From Squalus acanthias (Eukaryota), in the NCBI GenBank assembly GCA_030390025.1, contig CM059432.1, forward strand, positions 13,330,001-13,394,000: DNA of 64,000 bases. The letters are read 5' to 3'. The translations under genes and the position numbers were made by a program. Position 1 is the stretch's first letter. Each line of letters begins with the position of its first letter. This document shows positions 16,895 through 58,899 of the stretch, piece by piece. A model generated the notes under the pieces. The model had not been told where the DNA came from. It did not search any database and was given only the letters and a program-made list of their open reading frames with translations.

Positions 16895-17050
16895 ATAATA
16901 ACAACAGAAAATGTCAGTTCTGACGAAAGGTCATCGACCTGAGACGTTAACTCTGTTTCTCACTCCACAGATACTGCCTGACCTGCTGAGTATTTCCAGC
17001 ATTTTCTGTTTTTATTTCAGATTTACAGCATCCTCAGTATTTTGCTTTTG
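16895..17050 (+). mobile_element. 156-bp Penelope-derived unit containing a hammerhead motif
   Basis: 14-bp TSD AACG(C/T)CTAACTGCT (16881-16894 / 17051-17064). The body matches the 3' end of the GIY-YIG-bearing element at 58015-58899. Confidence 0.8.
16916..16952 (+). ncRNA. Minimal type-I hammerhead motif with core mutation (GAAA>GAGA)
   Basis: AGTT-CTGACGA-A-AGGTC-ATC-GACCT-GAGA-CG-TT-AACT. Confidence 0.65.
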
Positions 17051-28720: not shown

Positions 28721-29306
28721 AGTTGTGAGCTGGGTTACCGTAGCTCATGGTGTGTGAAGTTCCACTGGGAATAAGGAAGGAAGGACAGCTGACAGTAATA
28801 ACGATTTCATCTATTTCAACTCCCGGGATCAAGGTAGGATAAGTCTGTTTCCGTAAGCCTATCTGTGAAGCACCTTAGGATGTTTCTTCACATTATAGAC
28901 ACTATATAAGTACAAGATGTTGCTATATGTTGAACCATATTTTGAAATTTGCAGATGACACAAAACTTGGAAGTGTAGTAAACAATGAGGAAGATAGTAA
29001 TAAACTTCAAGAGGATATAGACGGGCTGGTGGAATGGGTGGACACATGGCAGATGAAATTTAACGCAAAAAAGTGTGAGGTGATACATTTTGGTAGGTAG
29101 AACGAGGAGAGACAATACGCACTAAACAGTACAATTTTAAAGGGGGTGCAAGAACAGAGAGACCTGGGGGTGTTTGTGCACAAATCTTGGAAGGTGCCAG
29201 GACAGGTTAACAAAGCAGTTAATAAAGCATATGGGATCCTGAGCTTTATAAATAGAAATGAGAAGTCGCACAACACCAGGTTATAGTCCAACAGTTTTAT
29301 TTGAAA

Positions 29307-29348
29307 TCACAAGCTTTCGGAGCTATCGATCGCCCCTTCCTCAGGTGA
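29307..29348 (-). ncRNA. Minimal type-I hammerhead ribozyme, intact core
   Basis: Minus strand UCAC-CUGAGGA-A-GGGGC-GAUCGAUA-GCUCC-GAAA-GC-UU-GUGA: stem I UCAC/GUGA, stem II GGGGC/GCUCC, palindromic AAGCUU in place of stem III. Confidence 0.8.
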
Positions 29349-29641
29349 AGTAAAGAGATACAGAATCGCCAAAGCATATATAGATAGAGAACAATGCATG
29401 TGTTACTTACAAAAGCAGACGACTACATTTAAATCACTCTGACTGTTTATCTGCCGAGGTGTGACAAAAGGCAATCAGGTCACATCAAAGACATAGCAAG
29501 ATACAACTGAGACAATGAGGTGGAGCCACAGGGGGTCCAATGTGTCAAAAGCCGCAGTATGGGAAACGATAAACTTTAAAATTTTTACTTTTTTACTGGG
29601 AATCACATCTGTTAACAAGCCAACGACGACTCGAGTCTGGA

Positions 29642-31290
29642 TCACGTCATGTATCGTGACATAAACCCAAGATCCCGGTTGAGGCCGTCCTCATGAGTGC
29701 GGCACTTGGCTATCAGTTTCTGCTTGATGATTTTGCGTTGTCGTGTGTTTCTAAGTCCGCCTTGGAGAACGCTTACCCGCAGATCCGAGGCTGAATGTCC
29801 TTGACTGCTGAAGTGTTCCCTGACTGGGAGGGAACACTCCTGCCTGGTGATTGTTGCGCGGTGTCCGTTCATACGTTGTCTCAGTGTCTGCATGGTCTCG
29901 CCGATGTACCATGCCGCGGTGCATTCTTTCCTGCAACGTATGAGGTAGACAACGTTGGCCGAGTCACATGAGTATGTACCATGTACCTGGTGGGTAGTGT
30001 CCTCACGTGTGATGATGGTATCTGTGTTGATGATCTGGCATGTCTTGCAGAGGTTGCCGTGGCAGGGTTGTGTGGTGTCGTGGTCGCTGTTATCCTGAAA
30101 GCTGGGTAATTTGCTGCGAACGATGGTACTTCTGAGGTTAGGCGGCTGTTTGAAGGCAAGTAGTGGAGGCGTGGGGATGGCCTTAGCGAGGTGTTCGTCG
30201 TCATCGATGACATGTTGGAGGCTGCGAAGAACATGGCGTAGTTTCTCCGCTCCGGGGAAGTACTGGACGACGTAGGGTACCCTGTTGGTTGTGTCCCGTG
30301 TTTGCCTTCTGAGGAGGTCTATGCGATTTTTCGCTGTGGCCCGTCGGAACTGTCGATCGATGAGTCGAGCGTCATATCCCGTTCTTACGAGGGCGTTTTT
30401 CAGCGTCCGTAGGTGTCCATCGCGTTCCTCCTCGTCTGAGCAGATCCTGTGTATTCGCAGGGCTTGTCCATAGGGGATGGCTTTTTTAACGTGGTTAGGG
30501 TGGAAGCTGGAGAAGTGGAGCATCGTGAGGTTGTCCGTGGGCTTGCGGTAGAGTGAAGTGCTGAGGTGTCCGTCTTTGATGGAGATTCGTGTGTCCAGGA
30601 ATGAAACCGATTCTGAGGAGTAGTCCATGGTGAGTTTGATGGTGGGATGGAACTTGTTTATGTTATTGTGTAGTCTTTTCAGTGATCCTTCACCATGGGT
30701 CCAAAGGAAGAAAATGTCGTCGATGTATCTGGTGTACAGCGTTGGCTGGAGGTCCTGTGCAGCGAAGAAGTCTTGCTCGAACTTGTGCATGAAGATGTTG
30801 GCGTATTGGGGTGCGAATTTGGTCCCCATGGCTGTTCCATGTGTTTGGGTAAAAAAATGGTTGTCGAAGGTGAAGACATTGTGGTCAAGGATGAAGCGGA
30901 TGAGTTGTAGGATGGCGTCTGGGGATTGGCTGTTGTTGGTGTTGAGTACTGAGGCTGTCGCAGCGATGCCGTCATCGTGGGGGATACTGGTGTAGAGTGC
31001 CGATACGTCCATCATGGCGAGGAGTGTTCCTGGTTCAACTGGTCCGTGGGTGCTGAGTTTCTGTAAGAAGTCTGTGGTGTCACGGCAGAAGCTGGGGGTT
31101 CCCTGTACGATGGGTTTCAGGATGCCCTCGACGTATCCAGAGAGGTTCTCACACAGGGTTCCGTTGCCTGATACGATAGGACGTCCGGGTGTGTTGGCTT
31201 TGTGTATCTTTGGGAGGCAGTAGAAGTCTCCCACGCGGGGAGTACGTGGGATGAGAGCGCGTAGGATGCTTTGAAGGTCTGGATCGAAGA
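29642..31290 (-). CDS. Penelope RT / GIY-YIG endonuclease polyprotein (N-terminally truncated, no internal stops)
   Basis: FYCLPKIHK, PGRPIVS, MDVSALYTSIP, GTAMGTKFAPQYANIFM, RYIDDIF, VSFLD, then NVVYLIRC...WYIGETMQTLRQRMNGHR. Confidence 0.9.
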
Positions 31291-33245
31291 TTTATAAATA
31301 GAGGCATAGAGTACAAAAGCAAGGAAAGTATGCTAAACCTTTATAAAACACTAGTTCGGCCCCAGCTGGAGTATTGTGTCCAATTCTGGGAACCACACTT
31401 TAGAAAGGATGTGAAGGCTTTGGAGAGGGTACAGAAGAGATTTACTAGAATGGTTCCAGGGATGAGGGATTACAGTACATGGATAGACTGGAGAAGCTGG
31501 GGTTGTTCTCCTTAGAGCAGAGAAGGCTAAGAGGAGATTTGATAGAGGTGTTTAAAATCATGAAGGGTTTAGATAGAGTAAATAAAGAGAAACTGTTTCC
31601 AATGGCTAAAGGATCGATAACCAGAGGGCACAGATTTAAGTTGATTGGCAAAAGAACCAGAGGCGACATTAGGAAAAACTTTTTTATGCAACAAGTGGTT
31701 AGAATTTGGAGTGCACTGCCTGATAGGATGGTGGAGGCAGATTCAATATGCCCTTCAAAAGGGAAGTGGATAAATACTTAAAGGAGAATAAATTGCAGGG
31801 ATATGGGGAAGTGGGACTAACTGGATTGCTCTTCGAAAGAACCGGCGCAGACTCAGTGGGCCGAATGGACTCCTTCTGTGCTGTACTATTCCATGATTCC
31901 ATTGTAAGGCATGCACAGAATTTCTTGCAATGGTTTTATGCTAAAGCTAGATGTATAAGAAATAAAATGCAGATATATGTTTCCATAGAGAATTTAGATC
32001 CAATTGGCATCTCTGAAACCTGGTTGAATAATAATGATGGGAAATATTTCCACTGGAGCGGAGAAAGCAAAGAGGAGGCTTAACAAAGCTTTTTAAAATT
32101 ATTAAGGGTTTTGATGGAATGAATGGGAGAAGACTATTTCCTTTGGCTGGGTACTCAGTGACAAGGGGTCAACCATTAAACATGTTCACTAAGAGAGTGA
32201 GGAAAGAGAGTAAGCATTTGTTTTAGACAGAGTTGTTGGAGCATGGAATGCTTTGCCACAGGAAGTGGTTGATGTAGAGATTACAGCAGAGCGGAGATCA
32301 TTCAGAATCATAACTACCCCCAAATAAATAGGCAGGAAACATCGGAAACATAGGAACATTCAGCCCCTAGAACCTGCTCCACCATTCAATTAGATCATGG
32401 CTGATCTGTATCTTAACTCCATCTACCTGCTTTTGATCCATAGCCCTTGATACCCTTGCCTAAAAAAAAAACCATTGATCTCATTCTTGAAACTTTCAAT
32501 TGACCCAGCATCCCTCAGCCTTTTGGGAAGAGAGTTCCAGATGTTCACTACTCTTTGTGTGAAAAAGTGCTTCCTGATTTCACTCCTACATGGCTTAGAT
32601 CTAATACTGAATGCAGAATGATGGGGTCTGACCAAGGCTGTACAACTGAAGCAATACTTCGTCTCTTTTCAATTCCAACCCCCTTGACAGAAGGGTCAAC
32701 ATTCCATTAGCCTTTTTGATTACCTTTTTTACCTGTGCACCGGCTTTTAGGGATTTGTGTACATGGACACCTAAATTCCTTTGCTCCTTCACAGGTTGTG
32801 GTTATTGGAGGTCAATCATCTCAGCCCCAGGACATCACTGCAGAAGTTCCTCAGGGCCGTGTCCTAGGCCCAACTATCTTCAGCTGCATCATCAATGACC
32901 TTCCTTCCATCATAAGGTCAGAAATTGGGACGTTCGCTGATGACTGCACAGTGTTCAGTTCCATTCGCAACTCCTCAGAAAATGAAGCAGTCCATGCCCG
33001 CATGCAACAAGACCTGGACGAAATTCAGGCTTGGGCTGCTAAGTGGCAGGTAACATTGGCGCCACACAACTGCCAGGCAATGACTATTTCCAACAAGCGA
33101 GAGTCTAACCACCGCCCCTTGACATTCAAAAGCATTACCTTCACCAAATCCCCCAACATCAATATCCTGGGGGTCACCATTGACCAGAAACTTAACTGGA
33201 CCAGCCACATAAATACTGTGGCAAAAAGAGCGGGTAAGGGTCTGG

Positions 33246-36053: not shown

Positions 36054-36666
36054 AAGAAGGCGGCTCACCACCCTCTTCTCAAGGGCATTTAGGGATGGGC
36101 AATAAATGCTGGCCTTTCCAGTGATGCCCACATCCCGGAATGAATTTTAAAAAAGCTCATAGGGCTAGAAATACATTATAGCCCAGGAATCGGCGGTATC
36201 ATTAGAAAAGTTGGAGAATTAGCGCCAGGCGCTAATGCTTTAGACTGCACGCAAAATTCGTGCTCACTGCCCAAAGAAATGATTGTAGTCCTAATTCAAG
36301 TCTTTGGGGGAAAAATTAGGTCGCGCCCCGTTTGGGGCGCAAATATTGTCTGGACGCAAATATTAGCGCCTGGCGCTAATTATCGCCACTGACTGGAAAC
36401 TTCACTTTTACCGCCCCGGGAGGTGAGTGGAGCGCTAAATCAGGCGCTGCACACCTGTCTTAAGGCGCAAAGGCCGAGCAGTGAGGCGCTAACTCAGCGC
36501 GCGAGCGCAGCGCAGGTGCTGCCAGTTAGCGAGGGAACACAGACACAATGGCGCCGGCCAGTTCTTAAAGCGGGGGGGGGGCCAATTTGCTCCCCAGCCA
36601 CACCCTGCTCATTGCAGCCTTGAATCTCGGCCTGGAGAGACCTGTGAATCCATTTTGCTGCCAAGG

Positions 36667-38539
36667 ATGGAGAGGGTGAGAGAACGAGCTCATCGCTTCA
36701 CCAAGCGGGCCTTGGATGCTCTGGTTGGCGCGGTGGAGCGCAGAAGATGTATACTCTTCCCTGAGAGTGGCAGGAGGCCTTTGCCACGCGAGTACAGAAG
36801 AGTGTGGAGGGAGGTGGCTCAGAGCGTCTCCTCCAGGAGCATGGTGCCCAGGACCCATGTTCAATGCCACAAAAAGTTCAACGACCTCACTCGGGTCGTC
36901 AGGGTGAGTGGCTTTTTCTCAATACCTCTCCATCCCTCCATCTCAACCTCACTCTATGGCCAGAGGGTCTTAAAACCCCAATGCACAACATTCATCCAAC
37001 ACCTATGGCCCTTTCATGAAACACACACACACATTCCACACTTTGCATACAGTAAGGGCTATTCACCTATGGGAGGCACATCAGGCAAGACCATGGCTGC
37101 ATACAGTAAGGGCTATTCACCTATGGGAGGCACATCAGGCAAGACCATGGCTGTATATTTACTCAGATGCTGTCCTTTTTCTTGCAGGCCAAGCTGGCGC
37201 AGCAGCAACGGACAGGTGGAGGGCGGCCTCAGCTGCAATCCCTCAGCGATCTGGAGGAGCGCGTCCACAGGATTGTGGCAAGCCGGGTGATCGGTCCCGT
37301 CGCCACTGGAGACGCCGACCCCGTTCTGGACAGCAATGGTAAGGTCATCACCTTTTGTCCTCTGTCCTTCCACTTGTCCCTCACAACACCAGCCTTTGAC
37401 ACTTTCAATTCAACTTGCTAACTCGCTGCACTTATTCCTCCCTTACTGCCACCCTGTCCTCATGCTAAAGCCACTCTTGTACCTCCCTGCTTAGAGATGG
37501 TGATTCACCAGCTGAGGAGACGGGCCCTGAAGCTGCCACTGGGAGTGAAGCTGCAGCCGAGGAGGAAGAGGAAGCTGGAGCATCAGTGCCACCCTCTCCC
37601 GAGGAAGCCCATGCCCACACTGGGAACACGCCTTCCCTGGAGGGGAGCAGGGGGGAAGGGTCTGATGAGGGTGAAGCTCCAGGACCCAGCGGGCTGCAGC
37701 AACGCCATGGGGGTAGGGAAGAACGGGGGCCTTCTCCCCAGAGGGAGAGTATGCCAGAGACTCCTACTGCAATGGACGCAGAGGAGGAGCGGCTGATCGC
37801 AGAAATGAACACCCAGGCGGTGGGCATGCACACTGAGCTCATGGGTGCAGTGGGAAGGGTGCCCGAATGCATTGAGTCACTGGCAAGGAGTGTGGAGCAC
37901 TTCGCTGTAGCACAGGCGGATGCCACACTAATGCTTAGTGCTGCAATTCAGTCACTGGCTGCCGTGATCCCATCTCTGACTGCGCTCATGCAGACTCAGA
38001 TTGAGGCCACGCGAGCACAGACTGCTGCCAACCTCGATGGTTCGTTCACATGTCCCCGGGGCTCTCACCGCGCCGCAGCAGGCCAGCAATCTGTTCTCCA
38101 GCAGATTGCTCCGGATGCTGAAGTGCTGCCCCGTGGGAGTGCCAGTGTGTCGGGCGAGCAGGGAGTTGCTGTCCTCTCTCACGATGACAGCATTCCTGCT
38201 GCCAACACTGTCACTTCTCCACTGCACTTGCCACCGCCTGTAGGACAGACTGCTGCCGCCCATGCAGAGTTGGTGCAGTCTGCAGCCGGGCCCTCCAGGC
38301 CCAGAACTGGTCGAGGCCGTCCTTCAGGGCATCTGCAGTGTCAGGGTCTGACGATCAGCAGCCTTCCACCAGCCTTGCTGCAGCCACTGAGGTCCCATTA
38401 CGGAGGAGCAGTAGGGTTAGAAGGGGGGAAGTGCGCAAGGGAAGGAGATCACCCTCGAAGGGCAAAAAGTAGGAGGTGTGAGAAAATGCTGGTCATTTTT
38501 TTATTAAAGGCCGAGGTTCATGGTCCAACTTTTGTTTAG
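36667..38539 (+). CDS. Harbinger Myb/SANT (trihelix-like) DNA-binding protein; three predicted exons 36667-36903, 37188-37338 and 37497-~38539
   Basis: MERVRERAHRFTKRALDALVGAVERRRCILF...WREVAQSV...RTHVQCHKKFNDL|GTGAGT; TTGCAG|AKLAQQQRTGGG...|GTAAGG; acidic and coiled-coil-like exon 3. The exon-3 acceptor and C-terminus are uncertain (possible late frameshift). Confidence 0.75.
37044..37151 (+). repeat. 54-bp tandem duplication in Myb-gene intron 1
   Basis: TGCATACAGTAAGGGCTATTCACCTATGGGAGGCACATCAGGCAAGACCATGGC x2. Confidence 0.9.
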
Positions 38540-38784
38540 TGTTTTGGACATTATCTCCAGGTTGTGAGAACCAGTTATGTTATTGACTGTTTTTTTGTGT
38601 TTATTTCTATGAGTTTGTCATGAGGAATTGACACACACAGAGTTTGTAAAATAAATAAGTTTCTGTATTCAAAATATACATGGTTGGTGTTTGGAATTAT
38701 TGGTGCCTTGGCCGTCTTCGGGGTTGCGTGCTGGGTTCATTGATGTTGTTAGCAATGGCAGAAGCCATTTCCACAGCAGGGGCC

Positions 38785-39929
38785 CTAGAAGCGGCTTGCT
38801 ATCAGCCGTTGACGGACGGCCCTTGCAGTTTCACCATTGTGGGCCGCCCTCCCGCCTTGGTGCTGCTGATGATCATCCTCCTCGTCCTCTTCCTCCTCTT
38901 CCTCCTCCTCCTCTGGTGGTGCTCCAAGGCCTGGTGGCATTGGCTGGGTCCTGACGATTGCCATGTTATGCAACATGCAGCACACAACTACGAAGTTGGA
39001 TACTCGTTCAGGCGAGTACTGCAGGGCTCCTCCAGAATGGTCGAGACAGTGGAACCGTTGCTTCAGCACGCCGATTGTGCGCTCAATGATGTTCCTGGTA
39101 GCTTGATGGCTCTCGTTGTACCGCAGCTCAGCAGCGGTGTTGGGCGTACGGAGCGGTGTCATCAGCCAGGTGCTCAATGGATACCCCTTGTCCTCGAGAA
39201 GCCAACCAACTGGCTGATGCGGTGCCTCGAAAAGTTCTGGCGCAGGATAAAAGCATCGTGGCAGCTGCCAGGATAGTGGGCATTGACAGCGAGTATCAGC
39301 TGTCTGTGGTCACAGACCAACTGAACATTCAAGGAATGGAACCCCTTTCTGTTCCGGAATTCCTCGGCATTCTCATGTGGAGCACGCAAAGCCACATGCG
39401 TGCAGTCAATGGCGCCCTGCACCATGGGGAAGCCCGCTATCCTCGCAAAGCCCAGAGCGCAGTCACGCTGCTTGTCTGGGGTCATGGGGAAAGAGATGAA
39501 CTGTCTCCTTTTAAAGAGGGCATTTGTGACCTGCCAGATGCAGCAATGCACCGCGAACTGGGAGATATTGGCGAGGTCCCCAGCAGCAGCTTGAAATGAG
39601 CCAGTAGCATAGAAGTTGAGAGCCACTGTGACCTTCACTGCCACCGACAGAGACGTCCTGGACCTCAGTTGAGGCTGCAGATCTGGCTGCAGCAGGTGGC
39701 AGAGCTCAGTGACCACCTCCTTGCTGAATCGCAGCCTTCGCAAACACAGCTCCTCAGACATATGAAGGTAGGAGAGCTGTTCACGATATACCCTGGGAGG
39801 GTAAGCTCTCCTGTACATACGCCTGTTGGCCCTCCTCCGTCTGGCCATCATTGCCACTCTCTCTCTGCGTCTCTGTGTCCTCCGATTCAGCTGGAGCAGG
39901 ACGACGCCCCCAGTCAGTGCAGCCCCCAT
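38785..39929 (-). pseudogene. HARBI1-like Harbinger DDE transposase with one frameshift near 39235
   Basis: MGAA...ALNFYATGSFQ...GAIDCTHV...[15 protein letters not shown]...[10 protein letters not shown], then after the shift [10 protein letters not shown]...[23 protein letters not shown]...CCMLHN and an acidic tail. Confidence 0.9.
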
Positions 39930-41979
39930 AGTCTCTTTGCAAGCAAAATTATGAAGGACAGCAACCAAAGTAGCAGCGAAGTTAGGATCAGTAGGCAAAA
40001 CTACCTCACAAAGCATTGACTCAATGCAGAAGTCTCTCTTTCTCTCTCTCCGAATCTCTCTCTCTCTCTCAGAACGAGTGGTGCAAAAATGTCAACCACA
40101 GAAAAAGACAGGAAGAGGCCCCCTTTAAATAGCACCCCCCCCAGCCCCACAGCGATTGATAGCGTTCCAGTCTTCCGGTCATTGGATGCGCCAGGCGGTA
40201 AGGCAGGGGGCGCCACTCAATTTCCGCTCCGGGGCGCCACAAGGGCGTTGCACCATGGAATGACGTCACAATCTGCGCGCGCAGGTGGTCGCAGCGGTAA
40301 AGTTTAGCGCCGCCGCACAATGTCTAGTTAAGTTCCCAAGCGGCGCAAACATCGCTGCGCCCGGGCGTTAGCGGCTTTGCGCCCCATTAGCGCCCTCTTA
40401 AGGCGCTAACGGGAGGCGCAACCAACTGAATTTTTACCCCTTTAAGCCCAAGCTCATTGGTGTTACACTCAAAGGGTGGACCAATATCAGGTGCAGCCTA
40501 ATCGCAAGTCATGATTGCCACAGGCTTTTTTCAGTACTTACATTGATGCTGCAGAACCTCATTCTCAGCATTGCTGGCTGTGCAGCTGCCTCAGCAAGCA
40601 GCAGCAGCATGTCAAGGAGAAGGAGCCGGAGGACTGAAGCAGGTGTACTCATGGCAGATCCACGCCCCAGGGAGAGAGCCCGCAGATTCTGCGATCAAGC
40701 ATTGGAGGCGGTGGTGTTCGCTGTGGAGAGATGGAGGGCGGTGCTCTACCCGGCAAGTGGCAGGAGGCTCTCGCCGCAAGTCTTCCGCACCATGTGGAGG
40801 AAGGTAGCCCAGCACGTCTCGGGCAGCACTGTGGTCCCCAGGACCCACACACAGTGCAGGAAGAAATTTAACAACCTCACTTAGGTGGTTAGGGTGAGTG
40901 AATGCTTCAAGAAATGCTACATACCGCTATCTGTACCACAATCTTCATACACTGCCCAAAGCACCACACCCCCAGCACTCACCCACCAACAATCTCCACC
41001 TACCAACACTCACACGCACATCTCACACCTTGCACACAATGACAGCTATTCAGGCAGGCACATCTCCCAAACACATCGCTCCACACTCACTCATACACTT
41101 TCTTCCCTCTTGCAGGCCAAGGTGGCTCACAACAGGAGGGAGCAGGAGCGCACAGGCGGGGGACAAGCCGACACCCAACCACTGTCTGCGCTGGAGAATC
41201 GAGTGCTGCAAATCATTGGGCGCCAGGTGGTGGGCACCGTGGCCACTGGCAATGTTGACCCCCTTGTTCATCCCTACTCCTTCTTCTCACATCCGACTTC
41301 CCCTTCACCCCACAAGCATTTCGCACTTTCCAGCTAATCTTGCTGTCTCCATGTATTTCTCCCTTCCTGTCCCCCACCCCTCACCTTAACCCGACTCTTG
41401 TGCCTTTATGCTTTCAGATAATGAGCAAGCACCTGAGCAGCCTGTCCCTGAGGGCACCGTTGACAGTGAGGCGGGAGAAGAGGAGGAGGAAGAACACACC
41501 ACGTCACTGCATGTCTCACCCGCAGGCACCAGCTCAGATACTGGCACTACGCGTTCTTTAGAGGCTGGTATAGTAGCGGGATCTGCACAGGGTGATGCAC
41601 CGGGAATGAGGGGGCTGCAGCAAGGCCAGGGGGAAAGGGTAGCTTGGGGGCCAGCTCCCCAGAGGGCGAGTTCGTGCGCGAGTTCTGCTGCACAGGACTC
41701 AGATGATGACCTCGATGGGGAGGCGTTTAGAAGAAGGGTGATGGGCATGCACACGGAGATGATAGGTGCAATGGCAAGGGTGCCTCTCGACAATGGTAAG
41801 GAGCGTGGAGGAGTCTGTCTCCAACATTGCACAAGGCTCTGCGCACACCATGGAGCCCATTATTTCTAGTCTGCAAAGGACGGTAGACTCCGAGAGAGAC
41901 CGTGGTGACACAGACCTGGTGCCGCGTGTGATGGGCAATCTGGCAGCTTCCATTGCAGCACAGGCAGAAGCGACACAAT

Positions 41980-58014: not shown

Positions 58015-58899
58015 ACAAGAGCAAAATACTGCGGATGCTGGAAATCTGAAACAACAACAGAAAATGCTGGAAATACTCGGCAGGTCAGAGAGAGAAACAG
58101 AGTTAACGTTTCAGGTCGATGACCCTTGGCCAGAACTGGAAAAAATTGGAGAAGTGGGGCAGGGAAAGGGAGGAGGGGAGGAAAGAACAAAAGGGAAGGT
58201 CTGTGATAGGGTGGAAGGCAGGAGAGATTGAAAGACAAAAGGGATGATGGTGCGAGGCAAAAGGAGATGGTAATGGGACAAATTAAGAAATAAAAGATGA
58301 GTCTAGATGAGGTGTAATTGGTACTGGCAGAATCATCAACAGCTGCCATGTGAGGGAAGAAAGAAAACAAAGGGATCGAGGTTATGGTCTGAAATTGTTG
58401 AACTCGCTGTTGAGTCCAGAAGGCTGTAAAGTGCCTAATCGAAAGATGAGGTGCTGTTCCTCGAGCTTACATTGAGCTTCGTTGGAACAGTGTAAGAGGC
58501 CAAGGACAGAGAGATCAGAGTGGGAGTGGAGCGGAGAATTAAAGTGACAGGCGACCGGTAGCTCGGGGTCACCCTTACGGACTGAACGGAGGTGTTCCAC
58601 ATTTACACCTCATCTAGAGTCATCTTTTGTTTCTTAACTTGTCCCATTACCATCTCCTTTTGCCTCGCACCATCATCCCTTTCATCTTTTAATCTCTCCT
58701 GCCTTCCATCCTATCACAGACCTTCCCTTTGTTCTTTCCTCCCCTCCCCCGCCCCACACTTGCTTAAAAATTTGTTACTTCTCCAACTTTTTCCAGTTCT
58801 GACGAAGGGTCATCGGCCTGAAACATTAACTCTGTTTCTCTCTTCACAGATGCTGCCTGACCTGCTGAGTATTTCCAGCATTTTCTGCTGTTGTTTCCA
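58015..58899 (-). mobile_element. Penelope-like element 3' end with an inverted partial repeat (minus 58015-58600, plus 58601-58899)
   Basis: GIY-YIG C-terminus EHLRSV...PVACHFNS...EEQHLIFRLGTLQPSGLN; a hammerhead motif in each arm; 11-bp TSD ACAAC(T/A)AGGGT (58004-58014 / 58900-58910). Confidence 0.85.
58795..58831 (+). ncRNA. Minimal type-I hammerhead motif, core intact
   Basis: AGTT-CTGACGA-A-GGGTC-ATC-GGCCT-GAAA-CA-TT-AACT. The mirror copy at 58101-58137 (-) has a mutated CUGGCCA box. Confidence 0.7.

Follow-up and report, generated by a model that had tools for sequence, protein, structure and literature searches.

Minimal hammerhead ribozymes (min-HHRs) in the pLTRs of metazoan Penelope-like elements (PLEs) are a kind of motif that was described in 2014 by Cervera and De la Pena (PMC4209133). 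In their consensus (Fig. S3), a U-rich flank is followed by stem I, CUGANGAH, G..C, GAAA, a palindrome, UH, the other strand of stem I, and an AU-rich flank, and an unpaired base between A9 and G10.1 is a hallmark of these motifs. A double-hammerhead model was proposed for them, and in Schistosoma, dimers and trimers, but not monomers, cut weakly in vitro (PMC4209133). Work by Luense et al. on PLE hammerhead dimers is summarized in a review (PMC6765202). For PAc, a Poseidon element of Anolis carolinensis, cleavage depended on protein and was dispensable for insertion in vitro, no read ends were seen in RNA-seq, and the main template was unprocessed RNA (PMC11167929, Frangieh et al., 2024). The same study places the PLE tail between two reverse-transcription start sites. 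A CX2-5CxxC linker between the reverse transcriptase (RT) and the endonuclease marks the Neptune and Nematis clades (PMC8557442). Finally, non-LTR retrozymes carry type-I hammerheads that are related to those of PLE pLTRs, and retrozyme hammerheads were reported in the one cartilaginous-fish genome sampled (bioRxiv 10.64898/2026.07.22.740005).

We analysed a stretch of 64,000 nucleotides from Squalus acanthias (the window), in which a sequence-only reading had proposed an intact minimal hammerhead at the 3' end of a young Penelope element. The motif is almost certainly a min-HHR. We are also confident that a minimal type-I hammerhead in the pLTR of a Neptune-type PLE, cutting as a dimer, is the best explanation for this locus. 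The features are collected in Table 1.

Table 1. Features of the element and of its hammerhead motif, in window coordinates.
Feature	Positions	Strand	Basis
PLE ORF, 5'-truncated, 549 aa: reverse transcriptase, CX4CxxC linker, GIY-YIG-type endonuclease	29642..31291	-	RVT_1 (E 2e-08) and alignment
Whole insertion, 2034 bp, one copy in the window	29257..31290	-	Ends of the duplication
12-bp AT-rich target-site duplication at the 3' end of the element	29245..29256		Exact repeat
12-bp target-site duplication bordering the element's 5' end	31291..31302		Exact repeat
3' terminus of the element; other copies run on into an optional PLE 'tail'	29257..29295	-	Loose ends
Decayed LINE-type reverse-transcriptase relic, left part	28900..29256	+	Translation resumes from 31303
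Same LINE relic, right part	31303..31900	+	Follows 29256 in empty-site contigs
Minimal type-I hammerhead motif, whole	29307..29348	-	Direct reading; sole descriptor match; top match of model R1; consensus of PMC4209133 Fig. S3
Stem I, 5' strand (pairs with 29307-29310)	29345..29348	-	Direct reading, 4 Watson-Crick pairs
Stem I, 3' strand	29307..29310	-	Direct reading, computed pairing
Core box C3-A9, CUGAGGA (CUGANGA, N7 = 29340)	29338..29344	-	Direct reading
Extra unpaired A between A9 and G10.1	29337	-	Direct reading
Stem II with 8-nt loop (29324-29331)	29319..29336	-	Direct reading and folding
G12-A15.1 GAAA (29318-29315), 2-nt palindromic spacer, U16.1 (29312), U17 (29311)	29311..29318	-	
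Predicted scissile bond, 3' of U17	29310..29311	-	Hammerhead numbering and NUH rule
AAUAAA, candidate polyadenylation signal, begins 10 nt past the predicted cut	29296..29301	-	

The closest named relatives of the ORF are shark proteins (Heptranchias perlo, 92% identical, and Scyliorhinus torazame, 86%). We consider the window copy to be 5'-truncated because full-length relatives have about 880 amino acids and the window ORF aligns with them only from about residue 335. The upstream second pLTR is absent from this truncated copy. The C-terminal endonuclease domain aligns with homologues that are annotated with PF01541 (P0024, P0037); the Pfam GIY-YIG model gave no match on the window ORF itself (P0001). 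In the linker, C410 and C415 are invariant and C418 is present in at least 90% of the 20 aligned proteins. Going by this linker, the element would be a Neptune-type PLE, with the qualification that Nematis shares the linker.

The insertion has clear boundaries. Copies of the family were read from four contig runs (X5, X6, X7, and X9), and contigs under-report divergent copies. Loose ends occur before 29256 in runs X5, X6, and X7 and before 29259 in X5, and the empty insertion site is seen in contigs of X5 (103) and X7 (40). The element interrupts an older LINE relic on the opposite strand, whose frame continues across the site. We take this relic to be CR1-like. As the insertion runs through the predicted cut to 29257, the template RNA was evidently uncut at that site (or re-ligated).

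The element had been called young, which holds in a relative sense only: its frame is open for 549 codons without a stop, but it is 5'-truncated and carries 10 private amino-acid substitutions (departures from the residue common to at least 75% of the close homologues, with 8 compared). One of these is E523K, at a position where Glu is kept in 5 of 5 homologues and which presumably corresponds to the metal-binding Glu of GIY-YIG enzymes. A PDB sequence search with the endonuclease region gave 0 matches, and the putative role of E523 is drawn from the alignment. Compared to the majority letter in X5, the window differs at at least 6 places in 464 nt, a rough figure from summed contig depths. 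Judging from these sequence comparisons, the copy is modestly aged and probably non-autonomous.

No second copy of the element was found within the 64-kb window. To look for host genes, we scanned 20 of the longer ORFs; each had either a domain of transposon type (RT, Myb-like, DDE) or no domain at all, and short exons would escape such a scan. At 36493-40091, a Myb/SANT-like ORF on the plus strand faces a DDE_Tnp_4 ORF on the minus strand (Pfam), a two-gene layout that we take to be a Harbinger-type DNA transposon. An unrelated, decayed Penelope-type relic lies at 58048-58897 (endonuclease fragment with 36% identity to P0006, E 9e-5) within a long inverted repeat whose arms are 93-95% complementary. 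The plus-strand arm of this relic contains a degenerate minimal hammerhead (C3 at 58799, 12.4 bits, E 2) with a broken palindrome, and the other arm has a mirror hammerhead near 58115 with an altered core box. The minus strand at about 17000-17045 resembles the outer end of the relic at 58 kb and has core-box-like words without stems; it is probably another relic of that family.

The motif sits on the sense strand of the PLE, 298 nt past the stop codon and 54 nt short of the element's terminus. Reading the minus strand directly, we confirmed both boxes (CUGAGGA and GAAA), the 4-bp stem I, and the 5-bp stem II that had been proposed, as well as AAGCUU (29316-29311) and the downstream AAUAAA (29301-29296). 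All 11 of the 11 fixed core positions are canonical, U16.1 is present, and H17 is U (non-G); minor variants at N7 and U4 of the core box occur among the family copies. Stem II pairs 29336-29332 with 29323-29319, includes one G.U pair (29334/29321), and is closed by G10.1-C11.1 (G29336-C29319). The motif fits the published consensus (PMC4209133) and, with a Neptune-type ORF 298 nt upstream, its identity as a minimal type-I hammerhead at a PLE 3' end is supported. The predicted cut at 29311|29310 likewise agrees with that consensus, with standard hammerhead numbering, and with the NUH rule for hammerhead cleavage sites (PMC11875169). The description of the motif as intact is accurate for its sequence, as the core is canonical, but it says nothing on activity, and the window holds no partner copy.

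The sequence-only reading also placed AAGCUU where stem III would be. A palindrome is indeed present there, but only AGCU (29315-29312, 4 bp) can serve, and pairing over all 6 bp would block the core. In a hammerhead core, A14 and position 17 must stay unpaired; as these are the outer letters of AAGCUU, the working palindrome is AGCU. The longer palindrome exists only because H17 is U, which is common in the published list of min-HHRs (PMC4209133).

The possibility that, in a window rich in repeats, a short descriptor picked up the motif at random is, we believe, negligible. A descriptor for minimal type-I hammerheads had 1 match on both strands of the 64 kb at all four stringencies. When three of these stringencies were applied to 300 dinucleotide shuffles, just 1, 2, and 4 of the shuffles had a match. 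We also built a covariance model, R1, from 15 motifs from other loci and none from the window (these training motifs, one of them a close relative, had been selected with the descriptor, so R1 depends on it, though not on the window). R1 ranked the motif first of 5 matches in the window, with 23.9 bits and E 0.014 by a rough calibration, and the next match had 14.5 bits. Three observations would fit a chance match. First, Rfam gave no match at the gathering score across the whole 64-kb window, and at E ≤ 10 in 28800-29800 it gave 4 matches with no hammerhead family among them. The Rfam hammerhead models presumably expect a real stem III. Second, the folding z-scores are unremarkable (−1.0 for the isolated 42-mer, −0.92, and +1.53). 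Third, a loose 13-nt pattern with one mismatch allowed is expected 1.4 times by chance. An Infernal-type search had been suggested as a check on the motif, and it succeeded with the purpose-built model but not with the Rfam hammerhead families. The shuffles, the ranking by R1, and the strand bias and the looser test in related loci that are described below jointly rule out a chance match.

To compare with related elements, we kept 80 PLE reverse-transcriptase loci of 101 that were confirmed in a protein-alignment scan of metagenome contigs. The descriptor had 29 sense matches in these loci (23 downstream of the protein match, 6 upstream, and 0 inside) and 2 antisense matches. The window motif is placed like 23 of the 29, as it too lies at the 3' end of a PLE in sense orientation. 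No descriptor match was found in 51 of the 80 loci, and 16 of the 80 have less than 300 nt behind the protein match. A looser test that demanded only the core and stem II gave 41 sense matches versus 4 antisense matches and 1.7 per shuffle round. Stem I is also present in 30 of these 41 sense matches (7 identical copies included), and although a palindromic spacer was not demanded, 29 of those 30 have one; this was seen 0 times in 30 shuffle rounds. R1 had 20 matches at E ≤ 1 in 38 of the 80 loci, all of them sense (8 are training rows and 1 is an identical copy). Locus L045, whose RT is 52% identical, has a near-identical motif, on an inverted piece, followed by AATAAA; it differs at N7, in the loop, and at H17, which is A there and C in L001. 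Among ten motifs with a 2-nt spacer, 96% of cells pair and both-sided changes are present in 10 of 11 pairs, with the rows having been chosen by a descriptor that demands pairing. We therefore rejected covariation counts on this distant-element alignment as evidence, as they are circular. An exact 23-nt search of the metagenome contigs for the 3' end of the family itself gave 0 matches.

Some of the related loci carry two motifs. In L013, equal-scoring hammerhead-like matches lie at both contig ends (66-106 and 5877-5917) and were missed by the strict descriptor; they probably represent a pair of pLTRs whose motif is a variant one. L064 (2562 and 2725, 163 nt apart) and L077 (1537 and 2724) each have two like-oriented hammerheads behind a single RT. 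Those in L064 form a naturally occurring cis pair on which the dimer could be tested.

Within the element's own family, variants that reach 3% of depth in one or more runs affect at least 6 places of the motif (loop 2, two in stem II, the bulge, N7, and U4). At one of the two stem II places, the G.U pair becomes A-U in 29, 37, 5, and 56% of depth in the four runs. The second breaks a pair unless it is matched by an unlisted change, and contig tables do not link changes. All 6 of the 6 indels listed within the motif fall in loop 2, and among the variants listed for the 8 places at 29311-29318, none reaches 3%. The pair-keeping change in stem II and the loop-only indels suit a constrained fold, as far as such sequence variation can indicate. 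In the comparison of core with flanks that the sequence-only reading had called for, variation was seen at 1 of 11 places in the core, 21 of 293 places upstream, and 1 of 50 places downstream, which is not a significant difference (P = 0.57; these are listed variants from contig data, with little power).

Three other features of the family came to light. First, the change of U4 to C (29343) is present at 0.1-8% of depth across runs and marks a subfamily at 6-8% in three of the four (X6, X7, and X9); a loose end in X6 joins U4-to-C with N7 = C (29340) and a different stem II. Second, loop 2 (29324-29331) holds a 6-nt palindrome, and copies without 4 nt of the loop exist, which suggests that the palindrome arose by a small duplication. 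Third, the 50 nt behind the hammerhead (29257-29306) are at least as invariant as the core, with 1 of 50 places varying. Depth is also highest over them in each of the four runs, so several subfamilies have this end in common. Depth increases toward the 3' end, which we did not interpret as cleavage because other subfamilies share that end. Also, all four runs are contigs, which cannot reveal RNA ends.

How might the motif work? As 2 nt separate A15.1 from U16.1, stem III should be unable to close in cis. Following the double-hammerhead model (PMC4209133), we propose that two copies would pair head to tail through AGCU (from A15.1 to U16.1) and exchange stem I strands, and that either copy would then cleave its partner 3' of U17 (29311|29310). 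This cutting would be slow and would probably need the help of protein. For the family, the use of such cutting would be to release unit RNAs from tandem or read-through transcripts. The solo, truncated window copy would be a passenger, having no cis partner and an endonuclease without the conserved Glu. The likeliest reading, on this model, is that the motif is catalytically competent but slow and would matter, if at all, in tandem source elements. It probably cleaves in vitro as a dimer or with protein, with some room for doubt, and meaningful cleavage from the window locus in vivo is very unlikely.

Computed energies do not favour the active dimer. With ViennaRNA, the active dimer has −21.7 kcal/mol, compared to −24.2 for two monomers, −24.3 for the blocked 6-bp form (2.6 kcal/mol more stable than the active dimer), and −33.5 for an extended duplex, and the stem III probability is 0. 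The active dimer is the minimum-energy form in none of 9 related natural motifs either, so we discarded cofolding as a test of the dimer: it does not discriminate. The isolated 42-mer forms stems I and II (pair probabilities in stem I of 0.65-0.99); in longer contexts, the probability is 0.02-0.36 for stem I and 0.44-0.60 for stem II. We also rejected the notion that loop 2, being self-complementary, sets this copy apart: compared with L045, the off-pathway duplex gains about 3 kcal/mol from it, and all of the relatives form similar duplexes. The energies do agree with the weak cutting of dimers and trimers in Schistosoma (PMC4209133) and with the dependence on protein in Anolis (PMC11167929).

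A related possibility is that a single motif is brought into its active form by the element's own protein, bound near the 3' end, so that neither the palindrome nor a second copy would be needed. Cutting by the PAc hammerhead required PAc protein and was lost in core mutants (PMC11167929); also, thermodynamics alone, as computed here, disfavours the active dimer. However, a 2-nt spacer should not allow stem III to close in cis, and the palindromic spacers in 29 of 30 cases are required by a dimer and not by a monomer. We consider an assisted monomer to be unlikely, and it is not strictly opposed to the dimer, as the protein could chaperone the dimer.

It could also be that the motif is kept as a fold or a protein-binding signal, or that it hitch-hikes, and that cutting plays no role in the life cycle. 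Cutting is weak in vitro (PMC4209133), core mutants of PAc left insertion in vitro unaffected and no RNA ends were found at its cut (PMC11167929), and Naiad elements thrive without canonical hammerheads, for which the authors raise parasitism (PMC8557442). The window insertion, too, was apparently copied from uncut RNA. On the other hand, distant elements with unrelated stem sequences have in common the catalytic boxes, U16.1, a base other than G at position 17, and the palindrome. This recurrence of catalytic features argues for selection for catalysis at some stage and is hard to explain otherwise, so we view the absence of any role as fairly improbable, if the least so of the alternatives to slow cutting by dimers.

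A more speculative idea is that the hammerhead is not a processing tool but a dose-sensing off switch, that is, a brake on copy number. A cut between the stop codon and AAUAAA would strip the polyadenylation signal and the priming end from the element RNA. Because two copies must pair to cut, it is conceivable that solo truncated copies supply the partner in trans, and in an abundant family they would then destroy the RNAs that active elements produce. Consistent with this, 6 of the 24 related motifs left after removal of redundancy have AATAAA within 35 nt past the predicted cut, versus 1.1 expected from composition, as do 4 of the 9 motifs of the 2-nt-spacer class (the 35-nt limit was chosen post hoc, and 7 identical copies were dropped to arrive at the 24). 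The window insertion derives from uncut RNA, and in mammals, according to a review, the Clec2 hammerhead cuts off a polyadenylation signal in this manner. Against the idea, 18 of the 24 related motifs lack the AATAAA signal, the trans interface would be only 12 bp in three short helices, activity was low even in tandem constructs (PMC4209133), and no cut ends were found for PAc (PMC11167929). We regard an off switch as a long shot.

Returning to slow cutting by dimers of a min-HHR, how does this locus compare to the described systems? The window motif agrees with the min-HHRs of PMC4209133 in its type-I topology, its core boxes, its short stem I, the unpaired base between A9 and G10.1, and the G10.1-C11.1 pair, and also in having a palindrome for stem III, a location in a terminal repeat, and flanks that are U-rich on the 5' side and AU-rich on the 3' side. 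Most of the min-HHR copies in that study are solo and truncated, as is the window copy. Stem II is 5 bp, compared to 7-8 bp in the Schistosoma motifs, which is within the range of Fig. S3. The motif from the turtle Chrysemys picta has the same spacer, U17, and downstream AAUAAA. No shark entry was found in the available parts of Fig. S3 and the supplement of that paper, and our literature search found no report of a shark Neptune-type hammerhead; Luense et al. may list shark motifs.

The element resembles PAc in having a hammerhead in the pLTR, an AT-rich target, and an uncut RNA template, and in both families, some copies lack the optional 3' tail (PMC11167929). In contrast, PAc is a member of the Penelope/Poseidon clade with a motif that overlaps the start codon (PMC11167929), while the window ORF has the Cys linker of Neptune and Nematis. 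The 5' truncation of the window copy would hide any overlap of the motif with the start of an ORF. The Neptune EN+ PLEs have a single ORF with RT and, at the C terminus, a GIY-YIG domain (Craig et al., 2021, PMC8557442), as does the window element, which differs from the clade in being truncated and in carrying E523K. Non-LTR retrozymes consist of tandemly repeated, non-coding units that each contain a hammerhead (bioRxiv 10.64898/2026.07.22.740005), whereas the motif here stands alone and is joined to a coding PLE. With one motif, a coding ORF, and no second copy of the element in the window, we rejected a non-LTR retrozyme as an explanation.

The window motif is thus an ordinary further example of an already known kind of PLE hammerhead, and as a shark Neptune-type motif it extends the recorded host range at most. 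With its clean ends, its 12-bp duplication, and its apparently uncut template, the window copy is a tidy data point, on a question that is no more testable here than in Anolis.
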